Of a stretch of DNA of 4,454 bases, positions 69 to 4,454 are shown piece by piece (position 1 is the first letter of the stretch; each line of letters starts with the position of its first letter). Position numbers and translations under genes: made by a program. The stretch is taken from positions 1 through 4,454 of the IMG/VR virus record IMGVR_UViG_2645727555_000025; one strand, 5' to 3'. The DNA comes from a virus (Duplodnaviria; Heunggongvirae; Uroviricota; Caudoviricetes). The notes below the pieces were generated by a model. It saw nothing but the letters and a program-made list of their open reading frames with translations, had not been told where the DNA came from and did not search any database.

Positions 69-93
69 TCTCCAGGATTCCCGGGGCGGTTCA
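69..93 (-). repeat. Terminal inverted repeat (IRL) of the IS3-family element
   Basis: Reverse complement of 69-93 is TGAACCGCCCCGGGAATCCTGGAGA, a 25-bp end beginning with the 5'-TG typical of IS3-family termini. Confidence 0.65.
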
Positions 94-124
94 AGCAGGT
101 GATTTCAGCTCCGCTTTAAATGAG

Positions 125-706
125 TTGGAGTTAGCTCATGAGCCTATAAACGTAATTAAGGCTGAAAGTGTTGAATCTGCCGAAAACGAGCCAGAACAAT
201 TGGGATTTATTGAGGTTGAAGAGTGTGTTGAGGTTAATGATGAATTAAAAGTTCAACAGTCAAATGATAGCAATACAAATAAAAAAGCTCGTACTGCAAG
301 AGGTCCTCGTTTTACTTTAAGTGATAAAGATGATTTGTTTTTCAATAAAGCAGGCTTAGAAAAAGATATTTTCTTAGACGCTTACGAAAACGCGCCTGTC
401 AAAGCAAAGGATAAGATATTAAACCTTCTTAATTGGTTTAGCGGAGGTCCAGATATTAGTGTTTACACGGTAATTTCCATGAGACACCTTCTCACAGAAA
501 AGAAGGCTACAAGTAATAGTATTAAGATTGCTTTAATGAGCAATCCAGAAAAACCGTATCCGCTTAACACTGCGTCAACTCAGGCTGGGCAAATGATGGC
601 TGTATTTCCAGCTACAGGAATTGCTGTTAGAGACGGTGGAAATCTAACATTGAACGAAGAATCACCGATCGTTAAGAAGTTTGTCGCGGAGTACACTATT
701 GGATGA
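125..706 (+). CDS. Hypothetical protein (193 codons from TTG), acidic N-terminal segment; probably the 3' portion of a gene interrupted by the IS insertion
   Basis: Frame is open from nt 5 to stop at 704-706 with no ATG/GTG before 479 and no convincing SD at TTG 125; the IS end lies at nt 93, so the native 5' end is likely displaced. No recognisable motif. Confidence 0.45.
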   Translation: MELAHEPINVIKAESVESAENEPEQLGFIEVEECVEVNDELKVQQSNDSNTNKKARTARGPRFTLSDKDDLFFNKAGLEKDIFLDAYENAPVKAKDKILNLLNWFSGGPDISVYTVISMRHLLTEKKATSNSIKIALMSNPEKPYPLNTASTQAGQMMAVFPATGIAVRDGGNLTLNEESPIVKKFVAEYTIG

Positions 707-746
707 CGTTCCCCTACTGAAAATAAAGCCCATAGAGAGCTTTATA

Positions 747-776
747 GTGCTGGGTAAGCTAACCCATACCCAGCAC
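747..776. other. Stem-loop (10-bp stem GTGCTGGGTA / TACCCAGCAC, 10-nt loop)
   Basis: Perfect inverted repeat 747-756 versus 767-776, read directly. Confidence 0.4.
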
Positions 777-780
777 CACA

Positions 781-828
781 AAAACGCGCCAGAGAGCTTC
801 TTGTTCGCATTTCTGGCGCGTTTTATTT
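781..828. terminator. Bidirectional rho-independent terminator
   Basis: 13-bp perfect stem AAAACGCGCCAGA (781-793) / TCTGGCGCGTTTT (812-824) with GC-rich core, A-tract on the 5' side and TTTTATTT on the 3' side; lies between the ORF at 125-706 and the methyltransferase gene. Confidence 0.6.
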
Positions 829-857
829 GATTGCCATACATAAAATCAAATGCAAAA

Positions 858-877
858 ATAGGTAATCACTTACCTAT
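858..877. promoter_or_regulatory. Inverted repeat ATAGGTAA-TCAC-TTACCTAT just upstream of the methyltransferase start; candidate operator or translation-initiation hairpin
   Basis: 8-bp arms at 858-865 and 870-877, 4-bp spacer, ending 11 nt before ATG 889 and adjacent to the purine-rich RBS region. Confidence 0.3.
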
Positions 878-888
878 CGAGAAAGAAG

Positions 889-1482
889 ATGATTGCAGCC
901 GAAAAAATCAAACAGCGAAAGCGCGACAACTCTCTTCGTGACCTCTGGAGAACACCTGATTGGCTGTTTTCTGCCATTCAACGTTATCTTGGAGTGACAT
1001 TTGATGTTGACGTTGCCTGCAACAAGGACAATGCAAAGCTGCCTATTTTCATAGGCGTTGAGCGCGATGCTTTGAAATCTGAATGGGGGCAGCCAGGTAC
1101 AATTGCCTTCCTCAATCCACCCTACTCCAAAATCTCCCCCTGGATTGATGCGGCTATACGTGAGCAGGCTCGCGGAGTTACAACAGTGATGCTAATTCCT
1201 CAATCCCTCGATACAAAGTGGTATGAGCGTGCAACAGAGTATGCGAATGAGACGATTATTCTGTCTGGTGGCCGCGTTGCGTTTGTCGAGCCTGACGTCA
1301 ATTTGGGTCAGGTAGAAGTAAACATCAACCCCGGTGGCAGTATGCTCGTTGTTTTTCGAGGGTTTTGTCAGGACGCTGGGCACTCTATAAGCAAGATCCC
1401 TTTGGACGTCATGAAAAGTCTGGGAGGGTATGATCCTGCGAATGTGATCAGGAAAAAAAGACCATCAAAGAAGGCTGCTTAG
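889..1482 (+). CDS. Phage-type DNA N6-adenine methyltransferase (Dam family, Pfam PF05869-like), orphan
   Basis: 197 aa; N-terminal WRTPDWLF motif and NPPYS catalytic motif (the D/N-P-P-Y/F motif IV of amino-methyltransferases); purine-rich stretch before ATG 889. Confidence 0.85.
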   Translation: MIAAEKIKQRKRDNSLRDLWRTPDWLFSAIQRYLGVTFDVDVACNKDNAKLPIFIGVERDALKSEWGQPGTIAFLNPPYSKISPWIDAAIREQARGVTTVMLIPQSLDTKWYERATEYANETIILSGGRVAFVEPDVNLGQVEVNINPGGSMLVVFRGFCQDAGHSISKIPLDVMKSLGGYDPANVIRKKRPSKKAA

Positions 1483-1503
1483 TTTGCTCTGGCGTCTGTA
1501 ATT

Positions 1504-1562
1504 AGCCTGCTTCTGTATATATAAATAACTACATATTAATTATTAATATACGGAAGCAGGCT
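1504..1562. repeat. GC-clamped inverted repeat (12-bp arms) enclosing a 35-nt AT-rich palindromic core; candidate terminator or operator/promoter element
   Basis: AGCCTGCTTCTG (1504-1515) pairs with CGGAAGCAGGCT (1551-1562), one G-U equivalent. Core contains the perfect 17-bp palindrome ATATTAAT-T-ATTAATAT (1533-1549). Lies 22 bp after the methyltransferase stop. Confidence 0.45.
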
Positions 1563-1668
1563 GTTTTGTATCAGAGACTCCCAGACCTGAACATCACTAC
1601 AGAATCCACTAGACCCCCTTCCCAGACGCTTTAAAATCGATTTTATGAACCACTTTAAGGAAACCAAC

Positions 1669-1899
1669 ATGTCATACCCGACTAATGTCGTTGCGCTCGT
1701 AGAGAGCGATTTTCTGGCCCAGGCTCGTGAAATGATGAAAGATCGTGAGCAGGCTTTCAACTTGTACGAGTGGGCAATTAAGTGCTTGCATCTTGGCGAG
1801 CATCGCGAACTTGTTGAACAGCTTTTAGGTGAGTTGATCAATGAGGTGTTTGCCTTGAATGTTCAACTACATGGTCGAGAAAATAATCAATCACAATGA
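1669..1899 (+). CDS. Hypothetical small protein (76 aa)
   Basis: ATG 1669 preceded by AAGGA (1657-1661) at 7-nt spacing, preferred over the ORF-track ATG at 1645 which has no SD. Acidic, helix-like composition; no recognised family. Confidence 0.55.
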   Translation: MSYPTNVVALVESDFLAQAREMMKDREQAFNLYEWAIKCLHLGEHRELVEQLLGELINEVFALNVQLHGRENNQSQ

Positions 1900-2319
1900 T
1901 AGATAAGTACAAACTATTCATAAAGTGAATTGTAAGTGCTAAGATCTGATAGTTTCCAGTCGTAGACTGGAGGCTCGACCTGATGGGTGGGGGTAAGCGT
2001 CACTGGCGTCAGGTTTAAAAAAGCTCACTACCAGCGTAGAACCGGTGCCGTATAGGTGTCGGGGAAGGGGGAACCAAAGTGAGCAGAGACAAGGGTCACT
2101 TTATGATTGTCGAGTCTGGGGTGTTTCGAGAGGTTGAATCCAGTACTCCCCTTCATAAAGTGTGGGAAGATCTCGGTTCTGGGGTGCTGTCATCCATAAC
2201 TTCCCAAGTCTAAGCTGGCAGTAGACTTAGACCATAGCTTTTCAGGTTATGAAACGACCAGGTTGGTGAGGAATTTTATACTCACCTCCCTGGGAGAGTA
2301 TTACCTGAAAAGACAACCT

Positions 2320-2357
2320 CTCACTTCGTTCGAGGTGAACTTCACTCACTTCGTTCG
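2320..2357. repeat. Two perfect 13-bp direct repeats CTCACTTCGTTCG (2320-2332 and 2345-2357) flanking the small palindrome GTGAAC-TTCAC
   Basis: Read directly; about 125 bp upstream of the RNase H start codon. Confidence 0.6.
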
Positions 2358-2418
2358 TTCAGTTCAGGTTTATAAAAACCTGTTCTGGGAAGTAATTTGT
2401 TTATTTTAATAATTATTA

Positions 2419-2443
2419 ACACGCACGCGTGTGCGCACGCGCG
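2419..2443. promoter_or_regulatory. 25-nt perfectly alternating purine-pyrimidine tract (ACACGCACGCGTGTGCGCACGCGCG) with nested palindromes, in the RNase H promoter/5' UTR
   Basis: Strict Pu/Py alternation across 2419-2443; palindromes CACGCGTG (2424-2431) and GTGCGCAC (2431-2438); preceded by an AT-rich stretch (2393-2418) and followed by SD AGGAG (2471-2475). Confidence 0.5.
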
Positions 2444-2480
2444 AGGAAAAATCGGCGCGGCGCTTGATTCAGGAGTTTAT

Positions 2481-3071
2481 ATGACGACGAAGACACCAGC
2501 CCGATCGCAAGCAAAAACTCGCAAAAAAGACAAAAACAAAAATTCTCCCCGCACCAATCCCACAACGCCTGTCGTAGAGTTCAATCCCCAGCTTAAAACC
2601 GTGAAAATCTTTAGTGATGGCTCTTGCCTTAAAAATCCGGGTGGCCCGGGCGGTTACGGTATCGTTCTCCAGTATCGTGGTGAGGAACGCGAGTTCTCAG
2701 ATGGTTTTCATAGCACCACCAATAACCGCATGGAGATGATGGGGGCACTTATCGGGCTGGAGCGTTTGAAATATCCATGCAACGTTATTTTGCACTCTGA
2801 TAGCCAGTATCTGAAAAACGGCATGACACAGTGGATGAAATGGTGGAAACGCAATGGATGGATGACTTCTGACAAAAAACCGGTAAAGAATGTTGATCTG
2901 TGGAAGCGTCTGGATGAGGCCGCAAGTCGACATAATGTTCGCTGGAAGTGGGTTAAAGGTCACGCCGGGCATCGTGAAAATGAAATATGTGATCGACTCG
3001 CGAAGATCGCAGCTTTTTCAGCAGCAGATATGCCTCACAAGAAAGATATTGGTTTTGTTTATAACAAATAG
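2481..3071 (+). CDS. Ribonuclease HI homolog (RNase H type 1 fold) with a ~40-aa basic, low-complexity N-terminal extension
   Basis: 196 aa. From residue ~40 it aligns with E. coli RNase HI as I remember it: catalytic D (IFSDGSC), E (NNRMEMM), D (HSDSQY), H (KGHAGH), D (ICDRLA) and the GYG motif are all present. N-terminal 40 residues rich in K/R/T/P. Strong SD AGGAG 5 nt before ATG 2481, preferred over the ORF-track TTG at 2397. Confidence 0.85.
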
Positions 3072-3168
3072 TAAGTAAGTGTTTACCTATCATTTTAAAT
3101 CATGTATCTTATCGGCGTCAGGATGACAATGTGTCGGTAAGACACAGTTCCAGGATGGAACGAGAAAG

Positions 3169-3190
3169 GCGGCTGGCAATCGCCAGCCGC
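3169..3190 (+). terminator. GC-rich hairpin (9-bp stem, 4-nt loop), possible terminator/attenuator after the RNase H gene
   Basis: GCGGCTGGC-AATC-GCCAGCCGC followed by AACTCTTTCT, a weak U-tract. Confidence 0.4.
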
Positions 3191-3219
3191 AACTCTTTCT
3201 GACACTGGATGGAGTCCAC

Positions 3220-3714
3220 ATGGCACGTCAAACCTATTTCACTTCTGTAACTAAACGTCCTCGTTCTTTACGTCAAATTTTGGCCGAATTATTTAGCGGT
3301 CGTGTTATGTCACGTCTTGATGAACTAGAGACTACCGTTCGGTTGCTGAATGAACGTTTAGATAATCAAGCGTCAGTTGTTGCGAACGTGGGGGCGATTG
3401 TTGCCTCTGGTTCTTCACGCGAAGCGAAAAATGCACGGCCTTTAGTGAAGGAGAAAAACAACAAGGACAGTTCGAATGGAAAATTTTCAAAGAAAGAGGC
3501 TGAAACCAATGGCCTACGTTCTCATTATAGTTTCACTGGCGACGGTAGCCGTTCCAGCCGGTCAGAGCCTTTTGATGCCGGATTCATCCATCACCACACC
3601 TTCGTCGACGACAATTACCACCACTCCAGTGGAGCGTCCTGTCACTCTGGATGGGATGGCGGTGGATGCGATACCTCAAGTTCATCCAGTTACTCAGGAT
3701 CATGCTGTGACTAA
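3220..3714 (+). CDS. Hypothetical protein, predicted coiled-coil N-terminal half; C-terminal third is low-complexity (His/Ser/Cys/Gly) and may not be translated as drawn
   Basis: ATG 3220 with GGAG (3211-3214) at 5-nt spacing; first ~85 codons look like genuine coding sequence (amphipathic LDELETTVRLLNERLDN). From ~3480 the +1 frame looks more gene-like than this frame. Confidence 0.4.
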   Translation: MARQTYFTSVTKRPRSLRQILAELFSGRVMSRLDELETTVRLLNERLDNQASVVANVGAIVASGSSREAKNARPLVKEKNNKDSSNGKFSKKEAETNGLRSHYSFTGDGSRSSRSEPFDAGFIHHHTFVDDNYHHSSGASCHSGWDGGGCDTSSSSSYSGSCCD

Positions 3715-3727
3715 GGCGGTTGTATGA
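3476..3727 (+). CDS. Small secreted or membrane-anchored Thr/Pro-rich protein (83 aa) with N-terminal signal-peptide-like segment
   Basis: ATG 3476 preceded by AAGGA (3463-3467); basic n-region MENFQRKRLKP, hydrophobic h-region MAYVLIIVSLATVAV, then PAGQS and a T/S/P-rich region; codon choice looks typical for enterobacterial genes; stop TGA overlaps the next ATG. Confidence 0.5.
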   Translation: MENFQRKRLKPMAYVLIIVSLATVAVPAGQSLLMPDSSITTPSSTTITTTPVERPVTLDGMAVDAIPQVHPVTQDHAVTKAVV

Positions 3728-3912
3728 ACTGGTTTTCAAATCACTTTGGAAAAATTTGGCTGGCAATTCTTGCCCTCATGGCCGCCGGTTGGGTATCGAA
3801 CATTATAAAACTTGTTTGCTCTGGCGATCTCCAGTTTCAGGCTGGCATGACCTTGGCTCGTGTAGTTGGGATTTTTATTTTTCCAGTCGGTTCGGTACTT
3901 GGTTATTTCTGA
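3724..3912 (+). CDS. Small membrane protein (62 aa, two predicted transmembrane helices)
   Basis: ATG 3724 overlaps the upstream stop (ATGA), SD-like AAGGCGG upstream; hydrophobic segments IWLAILALMAAGWV and LARVVGIFIFPVGSVLGYF. Preferred over the W/C-rich ORF at 3720-3950 in another frame. Confidence 0.5.
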   Translation: MNWFSNHFGKIWLAILALMAAGWVSNIIKLVCSGDLQFQAGMTLARVVGIFIFPVGSVLGYF

Positions 3913-3944
3913 CGGTTGTTAGTGCATATGCATTGACCGTCTTT
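3911..3944 (+). terminator. Hairpin (GACGGT / ACCGTC stem around the palindrome TGCATATGCA) followed by CTTT; possible terminator
   Basis: Arms 3911-3916 and 3936-3941; inner palindrome 3923-3932; short T-run 3942-3944. Confidence 0.35.
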
Positions 3945-4005
3945 GCGTAAGCAATTTATTTAACTAGAAAACAACTTGTTTTGACAAATAACAAAAGGAA
4001 AACAC

Positions 4006-4416
4006 ATGTTAGGTTTCTTCAAAAAGAAAACTCGTAAAGCAGTTATCGAAGTCAAAAAAATGGAGAACCGTGATGCGGTTGAGGCCACCGTGTGGGGCGC
4101 GTACATGATCTCCTATGCCGACGGCACATGTGACGCAAAAGAAATTGCCATTCTTGAGAAGACAATTGCAGCTCTGCCTGCGTTTTCTCCGTTTGCTGGT
4201 GAAATTGCCCAAATGAGCGCCAATATCCGTGCTCGTTACGAAGCGTCCCCTCGTTCTGCTAATGCACAGGCTATTCGTGAGCTGTCTGATATTGCTGGTA
4301 CTCCAGAGGCGGTCGATGTTCTGTGTCTGTGCCTTGATATTGCCGATCAGGATGGCATTGGTCGAGTAGGCAGCCTGACGGCTGCGGCTTGTCATGGTCT
4401 GCAATTACCGTTATAA
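4006..4416 (+). CDS. TerB-fold (tellurite-resistance TerB-like) protein, 136 aa
   Basis: SD AAGGA (3995-3999) 6 nt before ATG 4006. N-terminus M-x-x-FF-K and two A-D-G-containing helical segments (YADGTCDAKEIAILEKTI; DIADQDGIGRVGSL) resemble the paired ADG motifs of TerB as I remember them. Confidence 0.7.
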   Translation: MLGFFKKKTRKAVIEVKKMENRDAVEATVWGAYMISYADGTCDAKEIAILEKTIAALPAFSPFAGEIAQMSANIRARYEASPRSANAQAIRELSDIAGTPEAVDVLCLCLDIADQDGIGRVGSLTAAACHGLQLPL

Positions 4417-4454
4417 AAACAGGCAATGTCATTGTCTTTCAGGTGGTTATATGG

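Follow-up and report, generated by a model that had tools for sequence, protein, structure and literature searches.

The M.EcoVT2Dam enzyme of Stx phages methylates GATC (PMC6602927), and M.EcoT1Dam, the Dam methyltransferase of phage T1, makes G6mATC (PMC4996451). In the case of two further phage enzymes, the M.Phi93DAM of a Lactococcus 936-type phage and the M.Btr190III of a Bibersteinia prophage, the specificity has been assigned by cloning, SMRT or DpnI/DpnII digestion. M.Phi93DAM, in which NPPY is the sole recognisable motif, methylates GATC and protects DNA against DpnII (PMC4190342), while the cloned M.Btr190III methylates GATC with strong off-target activity (PMC4996451). The Dam homologues encoded by prophages of STEC and ST131 strains were silent or undetectable in lysogens (PMC6602927, PMC4659465). 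The gene described here encodes an orphan methyltransferase of the SSU5/pHCM2-type phage-plasmids; our search of the available literature revealed no biochemical or methylome study of this enzyme or of its close orthologues.

The DNA stretch under study (4,454 bp, referred to below as the window) represents the entire draft contig DF970312.1 of assembly GCA_001297725.1. Its positions 93-4362 are 99.9% identical to the relevant region of E. coli pECOH89 (NC_023916.1), a non-mobilizable phage-plasmid of the SSU5/pHCM2 type, 111.7 kb in size, which carries blaCTX-M-15; the two sequences differ by 3 SNPs, none of them in the methyltransferase gene. The identity of this 93-4362 segment to the Escherichia phages Cyrano, CMS-2020a, and PhiR41_1 is 97.5-98.3%, and that to Salmonella phage SSU5 and the Klebsiella SSU5-like phages is about 77-78%. 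At least 80% of the window is carried by 175 plasmid records and by about 206 of the 5,426 complete E. coli genomes. Sequence matches indicate that the window opens with the terminus of an IS3-family element (IS629-type; 1-92) and closes with that of an IS66-family element (4363-4454). The first gene (125-706) is truncated at the IS junction and lacks about 65 N-terminal codons, and at the opposite junction the TerB-like gene (4006-4416) has its final 23 codons replaced. Since the window is a whole draft contig, its ends are most simply explained as the breaks introduced by the assembler at repeats.

The methyltransferase ORF (ATG..TAG), which encodes 197 aa, occupies exactly positions 889..1482 of the + strand, stop codon included, and is a genuine gene rather than a chance reading frame. 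Based on the presence of WRTPDWLF and NPPYS, the earlier note had assigned its product to the phage family of Dam-type methyltransferases and had proposed an HMM search against Pfam PF05869 as a check; both motifs are there, and the search supports this assignment. The product matches PF05869 ('DNA N-6-adenine-methyltransferase (Dam)') with E=1.5e-37 and 129.3 bits, as compared to the gathering cutoff of 28.1 bits, and the match is nearly full-length (residues 13-173, profile positions 5-160 of 169). Its score against the NCBIfam equivalog model TIGR01712 (phage_N6A_met, 'phage N-6-adenine-methyltransferase'; positions 7-162 of 165) is 112.5 bits and exceeds the curated cutoff of 97.05 bits. 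The same protein matches PHROG 111 ('DNA methyltransferase') with E=1.7e-64, and its best matches in PADLOC are the 'orphan methyltransferase' models. Every feature examined computationally is that of a PF05869/TIGR01712 family member. A match to PF02086 (MethyltransfD12), the family of E. coli and T4 Dam, was not detected at E<=0.1, and at most the protein may be a functional analogue of host Dam, not its PF02086 relative. The gene is identical to HXG89_RS00560 of pECOH89 (WP_021512351.1), with 0 SNPs in the interval, and is annotated there, at matching coordinates, as 'phage N-6-adenine-methyltransferase'. The exact protein occurs under this name on about 350 public contigs, and its wider family comprises 6,762 clusters at 50% identity (E<=1e-3), with matches in 1,987 phage records. 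The gene, its family, and its name are already present in public databases for hundreds of genomes, and in this respect the identification made in the earlier note is correct but ordinary.

Two alignments, one with 28-29 homologues and another with the T1, Stx-phage, and F108 enzymes, indicate that the motifs of the protein are intact. Residues D41, A43, L62, W66, N76, P77, Y79, S80, and L102 are invariant in both alignments, while T22, P23, P78, the GVTTV strand, G128-R129..F132, and S151-M152..F156 are nearly invariant. The WRTPDWLF sequence (aa 20-27; 946..969, +), which contains T22 and P23, begins a motif-X-like 'TP' helix. The FDVDVAC sequence (aa 38-44; 1000..1020, +), including D41 and A43, coincides with the first beta-strand and the loop that follows it (strand E40-42 in the AlphaFold2 model). 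The order of motifs, namely the TP helix, the D-x-D-x-A strand, and NPPY, is gamma-like and suggests that FDVDVAC takes the position of AdoMet-binding motif I, although the canonical FxGxG is absent from the protein. The NPPYS sequence (aa 76-80; 1114..1128, +) follows the model strand E72-75 and represents catalytic motif IV; P78 is present in at least 90% of the 28-29 homologues, and all four NPPY residues are invariant in the comparison with the T1, Stx-phage, and F108 enzymes. Two further regions deserve mention. The first of them is the loop VEPDVNLGQVEVNINPGG (aa 133-150; 1285..1338, +), modelled with pLDDT of 65 and 60 in its two blocks, which is 3 residues longer than the corresponding loop of the T1, Stx-phage, and F108 enzymes and has a different composition; it is a candidate for the DNA-contact or specificity loop. 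The second one is the basic C-terminal tail RKKRPSKKAA (1447..1479, +), which is disordered in the model. A tail rich in Lys and Arg is conserved in the SSU5-type orthologues and may contribute to non-specific DNA affinity.

The AlphaFold2 model of the protein (pLDDT 82.5, pTM 0.81) consists of a Rossmann-type domain of alternating strands and helices, and its low-confidence stretches are limited to residues 1-10, 131-150, and 181-197. The predicted structure is that of a class I SAM-dependent methyltransferase with the catalytic loop after beta-4. As modelled, the 197-aa protein is limited to the catalytic Rossmann-type domain and is too small to accommodate a separate target-recognition domain. 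A sequence search of PDB revealed no chain at E<=10, and PF05869 is a family without a solved structure. A Foldseek search indicated similarity, with the probability of 1.00, to the catalytic domains of M.TaqI, CamA, M.BseCI, and the rRNA adenine methylase KsgA, but TM scores were in the range of 0.35-0.49. Higher scores, of up to 0.75, were obtained for viral models of predicted phage N6-adenine methyltransferases. Since the solved matches are only remote catalytic domains, the specificity of the enzyme is not readable from the structure.

The earlier note described the enzyme as an orphan, with no restriction endonuclease ORF in the window, and this description can be extended to the complete element. 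None of the window ORFs was recognised as a nuclease or restriction endonuclease with the use of Pfam, PHROG, NCBIfam, and PADLOC, and the sole match to a defence model was that to 'orphan MTase'. Likewise, none of the 119 listed features of pECOH89 is annotated as a restriction enzyme, although many of its genes are described as 'hypothetical'. A 561-aa DUF4942 protein encoded downstream in pECOH89 was considered as a hidden partner or a second methyltransferase, but its only match was to the DUF, and no sequence relative of it was found in PDB.

Orthologues of the methyltransferase, of 55-98% identity, are encoded by contigs of about 100-113 kb from Escherichia, Salmonella, Klebsiella, Cronobacter, Enterobacter, Xenorhabdus, Providencia, Kluyvera, and Morganella, which identifies its gene as a core gene of SSU5-type phage-plasmids. 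Beyond this clade, the identity falls sharply to about 40%. In pECOH89, the gene is located in a co-oriented block that comprises the genes for an SbcCD-like pair, nrdA, nrdB, and the genes for thymidylate synthase, DHFR, and a 3'-5' exonuclease, together with a hypothetical gene, the methyltransferase gene, a small ORF, and the gene of RNase HI. This block is a replication and nucleotide-metabolism module. The order of the hypothetical gene, the methyltransferase gene, the small ORF, and rnhA is the same in pECOH89, Cyrano, SSU5, and a Klebsiella phage.

Within this module, the methyltransferase gene forms a self-contained unit between two terminator hairpins, with a promoter-like site of its own. 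The rho-independent terminator of the upstream gene (781..827, +; -25.5 kcal/mol, z = -6.05) consists of a stem and UUUUAUUU; it is conserved in SSU5 and Klebsiella elements, with a compensatory change of G-C to A-T in the stem. It is followed by a candidate sigma-70-like promoter with an extended TG (TTGCCA-17-AAAAAT; 831..859, +), which was found by a consensus scan only and lies in a region conserved in SSU5 and Klebsiella. The putative ribosome-binding region GAGAAAGAAG (878..887, +) is purine-rich and was predicted from the sequence. Conservation in SSU5 and Klebsiella is a feature of the upstream elements of this gene in general. Downstream of the stop codon, an inverted repeat with 17-nt arms and an AT-rich loop, followed by UGUUUUGU, forms a long terminator-like hairpin (1503..1563, +; -33.7 kcal/mol, z = -6.2).

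A perfect 18-bp palindrome, TAGGTAA-TCAC-TTACCTA (859..876, +), is located 13 nt upstream of the ATG codon. The TAGGTAA-N4-TTACCTA sequence occurs in pECOH89 in 10 copies, as compared to about 0.5 expected. All of them are intergenic, and they are spread over early as well as late modules; a large part of them lies directly next to the stop codon of the upstream gene, and two have symmetric changes in the arms. The number of copies, their presence in early and late modules, the proximity of several of them to stop codons, and the symmetric arm changes speak against the role of the palindrome as an operator specific to the methyltransferase gene. These palindromes fit better a family of intergenic hairpin 'punctuation' elements.

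A separate observation concerns the 580-nt gap between the small ORF located 3' of the methyltransferase gene and rnhA. Conservation, covariation, and folding indicate the presence in this gap of a structured RNA candidate with a core of about 390 nt (approximately 1977-2363, +). The core is almost invariant in the elements of E. coli, Salmonella, Klebsiella, Kluyvera, Enterobacter, and Buttiauxella, whereas the genes that flank it are only about 77% identical. It is present at the identity of at least 89% in 687 plasmid records, and in none of 40 sampled ones is there an annotated feature in this place. RNAalifold predicted 125 base pairs, 14 of them with compensatory double changes; this number was not reached in any of 500 shuffles, and slid partners gave from 1 to 4. 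Numerous G-U pairs point to the + strand, whose fold has z = -2.8. In Cyrano, an ORF within the core, CYRAN_81, is expressed in lysogeny at the level 12-fold above background (PMC9928086). The 44-aa product annotated for CYRAN_81 was rejected as the functional one, as this ORF is disrupted by indels of 1-2 nt in the copies from Klebsiella, Buttiauxella, and Salmonella. A search of Rfam gave only noise and no family match, and no copies of the core were found in Xenorhabdus or Morganella elements or in phages other than those of the SSU5 type. The 1977-2363 region appears to encode a structured RNA of the SSU5-type phage-plasmids that has so far escaped description, and it is more interesting than the methyltransferase itself.

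Information on the expression of the methyltransferase gene comes from Cyrano, a 98%-identical phage-plasmid, in which its orthologue is CYRAN_79. In the LF82 transcriptomes, log2(FPKM+5) of CYRAN_79 in LB was 2.82 and 2.32, with 2.32 being the floor (PMC9928086 S1 Table), and its maximum in any condition, macrophages included, was 4.14 (PMC9928086). Its normalised count of 6.0 was the lowest in its neighbourhood and corresponds to about 0.6x the local background, as implied by the figures for CYRAN_81 (117, which is 12-fold above background; PMC9928086). These data represent one strain and non-induced conditions, namely lysogenic LB cultures and macrophages, and they show that the gene is silent when Cyrano persists as a plasmid prophage. 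Cyrano can be induced by ciprofloxacin (PMC9928086), and the location of the gene in the replication and nucleotide-metabolism module suggests that it is switched on in lytic growth.

The explanation preferred by us, to which we assign a probability of roughly 0.6, is that the gene encodes a minimal orphan N6-adenine methyltransferase that is silent in lysogeny and protects the phage DNA in the lytic phase, most probably by methylation of GATC. The SSU5/pHCM2-type phage-plasmids carry this 197-aa class-I SAM-dependent phage 'mini-Dam' as their standard methyltransferase, with no restriction enzyme as its partner. According to this explanation, its gene would stay silent as long as the element is maintained as a plasmid prophage, and would be turned on in lytic growth together with the surrounding genes of replication and nucleotide metabolism. 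The enzyme would flip target adenines into the NPPY pocket and methylate the newly made phage DNA, most probably at GATC, faster than the limited host Dam. Packaged genomes would be fully methylated when they enter the next host and could resist restriction at sites that are cleaved only when unmethylated. Since Dam is present in all known hosts, what a further GATC methylase would bring is argued here only by analogy to phages T1, P1, and Stx phages.

The earlier note stated that the target site cannot be read from the sequence. While this is strictly true, every documented characterised member of the family methylates GATC, which makes GATC the default. The 889-1482 protein is 25% identical to T1 Dam and 39% identical, over 145 aa, to gp39 of the Stx phage PA28, which we take to be of the M.EcoVT2Dam type. 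As field tools require at least 80% identity for a confident transfer of motifs, and the identity to characterised family members is only 25-39%, GATC is a best guess only, but, judging from the family relationship, it is the probable primary site of this enzyme. A relaxed or different specificity appears distinctly less probable, and there is only a slight chance that the enzyme is inactive. The frequency of GATC in pECOH89 was considered as a clue to the target and dropped: the observed/expected ratio of 0.82 is within the range of 0.74-0.97 of other 4-bp palindromes, of which only CTAG is strongly depleted.

Among the alternatives, the one that survives best, though it is rather doubtful, is that the enzymes of the SSU5 clade have a relaxed or non-GATC specificity and hyper-methylate adenines in many contexts, providing broad protection against restriction like Hia5/Hin1523 or M.EcoGII. 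This alternative is favoured by the lack of a target-recognition domain, by the aa 133-150 loop, which is unlike that of the GATC enzymes, and by the identity of only 25-39% to the characterised enzymes. Additionally, another strict GATC methylase would be of little use to a host with Dam of its own. Significant off-target methylation beyond GATC was observed for M.Btr190III, a cloned relative of T1 Dam (PMC4996451), and prophage and plasmid methyltransferases have been discussed as often promiscuous (PMC4659465). However, GATC is the primary site of every documented characterised PF05869-type enzyme, and the non-specific Hia5, Hin1523, and M.EcoGII may lie outside this family. A term search of the paper of Drozdz et al. 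gave no family-level link to the 889-1482 enzyme. A more specific variant of this proposal, in which the enzyme of the SSU5 clade departs from a strict GATC Dam and its new or relaxed specificity is set, with no recognition domain present, by the diverged aa 133-150 loop and the basic tail, is a tentative one and a little more doubtful still.

It is unlikely, but compatible with the lytic-phase self-protection preferred by us and not exclusive of it, that methylation serves the DNA transactions of the element itself, for instance by licensing the cleavage of the packaging site or by regulating lytic replication or gene expression. Dam methylation acts in this way at the pac site of phage P1, in packaging cleavage. 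The methyltransferase gene lies within the module of replication and nucleotide metabolism and is universal in SSU5-type phage-plasmids, including the distant ones of Xenorhabdus, Providencia, and Morganella, which suggests a core rather than an accessory function. On the other hand, no methylation-dependent site was identified, and the 16 GATC sites of the window show no notable clustering.

Of the two roles that the earlier note had attributed to orphan methyltransferases in general, anti-restriction and epigenetic, the former can be retained, in the form of the lytic-phase self-protection, which fits the data better. The latter finds little support here. The proposal that the enzyme methylates host or plasmid DNA in lysogeny and alters gene expression has generic precedents among the reviewed orphan methyltransferases, and the gene could be de-repressed if the contig were a stranded fragment devoid of the phage-plasmid repressor. 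Nevertheless, the expression of CYRAN_79 is at the detection floor in lysogenic cultures and stays very low in macrophages, lower than that of the neighbouring genes, and the prophage Dam homologues of STEC and ST131 lysogens are similarly silent or undetectable. The silence of CYRAN_79 in lysogeny therefore favours the lytic-phase self-protection over host epigenetics, which we regard as very improbable. The least probable proposal, that of an inactive relic on a decaying fragment cut by IS elements, suggested by the truncation of both contig-edge genes by IS ends, is hardly tenable in view of the full-length ORF, which shows 100% identity to its counterpart in intact phage-plasmids, the presence of all invariant residues, the intact promoter region and terminators, and the simpler explanation of the contig ends as assembly breaks at repeats.

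Phage-plasmids of the SSU5 type spread ESBL and carbapenemase genes (PMC9600943), and pECOH89 with its blaCTX-M-15 gene is one of those that carry a resistance determinant. The methyltransferase is the sole recognisable DNA-modification enzyme of these elements, and it probably affects the restriction barriers that they cross. Should its specificity be relaxed, the virion DNA would be hyper-methylated and broadly resistant to restriction, which would help to explain the wide host range of these carriers of resistance genes.

Among the known systems compared, E. coli Dam and T4 Dam share with the window enzyme the orphan status and, likely, the G6mATC product, but they belong to another Pfam family (PF02086, alpha class), have the alpha-class order of motifs, and contain an inserted recognition domain. 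The gamma-class M.TaqI (PDB 2adm/1g38) is the best match of solved structure and has in common with the predicted structure the Rossmann catalytic domain and the order of TP, acidic loop, and NPPY, although the TM score is only about 0.45 and the identity 15-17%. In contrast to the window enzyme, M.TaqI (421 aa) has a large C-terminal recognition domain, recognises TCGA, and is a part of a restriction-modification pair.

M.Phi93DAM and M.Btr190III, small phage orphans in which NPPY alone is recognisable, are GATC enzymes of the same family, although they are distant in sequence from the window enzyme; genes of related lactococcal phages encode proteins about 30% identical to it. The off-target activity of M.Btr190III is a warning that the specificity in this family can be loose. 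The Dam of HP1/HP2/F108-type P2-like phages of Pasteurellaceae represents the same family (about 33% identity) and is also an orphan encoded next to replication genes, but in a different host clade. GATC is the target of HP1 Dam according to the older literature. M.EcoT1Dam (T1 Dam, ST20, 237 aa), the founder of the family, shares with the window enzyme the motifs and the orphan status, and differs from it by an N-terminal extension of about 40 aa, by an insertion of 14 aa before the GR..F motif, and by the virulent nature of phage T1.

A further system is that of the M.EcoVT2Dam type in Stx phages (933W/VT2-Sa group; represented here by PA28 FDH52_gp39). The Stx-phage enzyme is shorter in the loop that corresponds to aa 133-150 and is devoid of the basic C-terminal tail, and its gene resides beside NinB in the lambdoid nin region and not in a phage-plasmid replication module. 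However, it matches the same Pfam family, has the same order of motifs and a similarly small size (175 aa), and, like the window enzyme, is a phage-borne orphan in a Dam+ host, with the catalytic motifs of the two proteins all aligned.

The region downstream of the methyltransferase gene contains a conserved non-coding block. This block of about 390 nt (window positions 1977-2363, + strand), located between a small ORF (1645-1899) and the RNase HI gene rnhA and directly preceded by a variable hairpin (1956-1970), retains 89-100% identity among 687 SSU5-type plasmids of at least seven genera, while the identity of the flanking genes is about 77%. None of the sampled plasmid records carries an annotated feature at this block, and the search of Rfam returned no match to it. 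The consensus structure of the block comprises 125 pairs, 14 of which show compensatory double changes; none of 500 shuffles (0/500) reached this, and slid controls gave 1-4. The block was assigned to the + strand because of G-U pairs. In Cyrano, an Escherichia phage-plasmid, it overlaps CYRAN_81, which is expressed in lysogeny at 12 times the background, and the 44-aa ORF of CYRAN_81 is broken by indels in other copies of the block. We regard this block as a candidate for a new structured RNA carried by phage-plasmids. Its 3' end contains a direct repeat, TCACTTCGTTCG, in two copies (2321-2332 and 2346-2357), invariant in all 10 aligned copies of the block and followed by a weak hairpin, CAGGTTT-ATAA-AAACCTG.

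The rnhA gene (2481-3071, + strand) encodes a phage-plasmid RNase HI (NF001236, 220 bits) whose N-terminus is extended by about 38 aa; this extension is basic and lies outside the coverage of the RNase H profile. The RNase H coding sequence annotated in Salmonella phage SSU5 (L008, positions 3465-4229) is longer (254 aa) and reaches back into the conserved RNA block; this long form probably represents a mis-called start. The rnhA start is preceded, at a distance of about 25 nt, by an alternating purine-pyrimidine tract, ACGCACGCGTGTGCGCACGCGCG (2433-2456), of a type prone to Z-DNA or cruciform formation. A similar tract is kept in the SSU5-like Klebsiella element, and the only Rfam match at this position was weak and judged spurious.

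Two copies of an 18-bp palindrome, TAGGTAA-N4-TTACCTA, are present in the window (859-876 and 3072-3089). In the 111.7-kb E. coli phage-plasmid pECOH89 (NC_023916.1), 10 copies were found vs. about 0.5 expected (record positions 32588, 37634, 60133, 63556, 68847, 90356, 94407, 96620, 106171, and 110855), all of them intergenic, with both the replication and the structural modules represented. The palindrome often starts directly at the stop codon of the upstream gene (TGA-TAGGTAAGT...), and TAG or TAA triplets occur within the palindromes in several frames and on both strands. In the palindromes of SSU5 and the Klebsiella element the arms are kept and the loop is variable. At two sites the arms have changed symmetrically. 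Probably the palindrome is not an operator but a hairpin "punctuation" element that acts in RNA stability or processing.

Both ends of the window are formed by insertion sequence termini, of the IS3 family (IS629-type) on the left (1-92) and of the IS66 family on the right (4363-4454). The phrog_5235 gene (125-706) is truncated by an IS terminus, and the TerB-like gene (4006-4416) has acquired a chimeric C-terminus in the same way. Since the window is the entire contig DF970312.1 of assembly GCA_001297725.1, the termini may come from two IS elements inserted into an intact phage-plasmid, or the contig may be a stranded fragment.

Among the remaining products, a 164-aa protein of unassigned function (phrog_10411; 3220-3714, + strand) has a helical N-terminal part and an unusual C-terminal tail rich in His, Ser, Cys, and Gly (...HHHTFVDDNYHHSSGASCHSGWDGGGCDTSSSSSYSGSCCD). 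The next gene (phrog_6006; 3724-3912) encodes a 62-aa peptide, a probable membrane peptide. Downstream of the part of pECOH89 that corresponds to the window, at a distance of about 4 kb (L001, positions 19683-21368), lies the gene for a 561-aa protein, considered as a possible further DNA-modification enzyme, whose only Pfam match is DUF4942 and for which a PDB sequence search returned no relative; this protein is common to pECOH89 and Cyrano (CYRAN_90).
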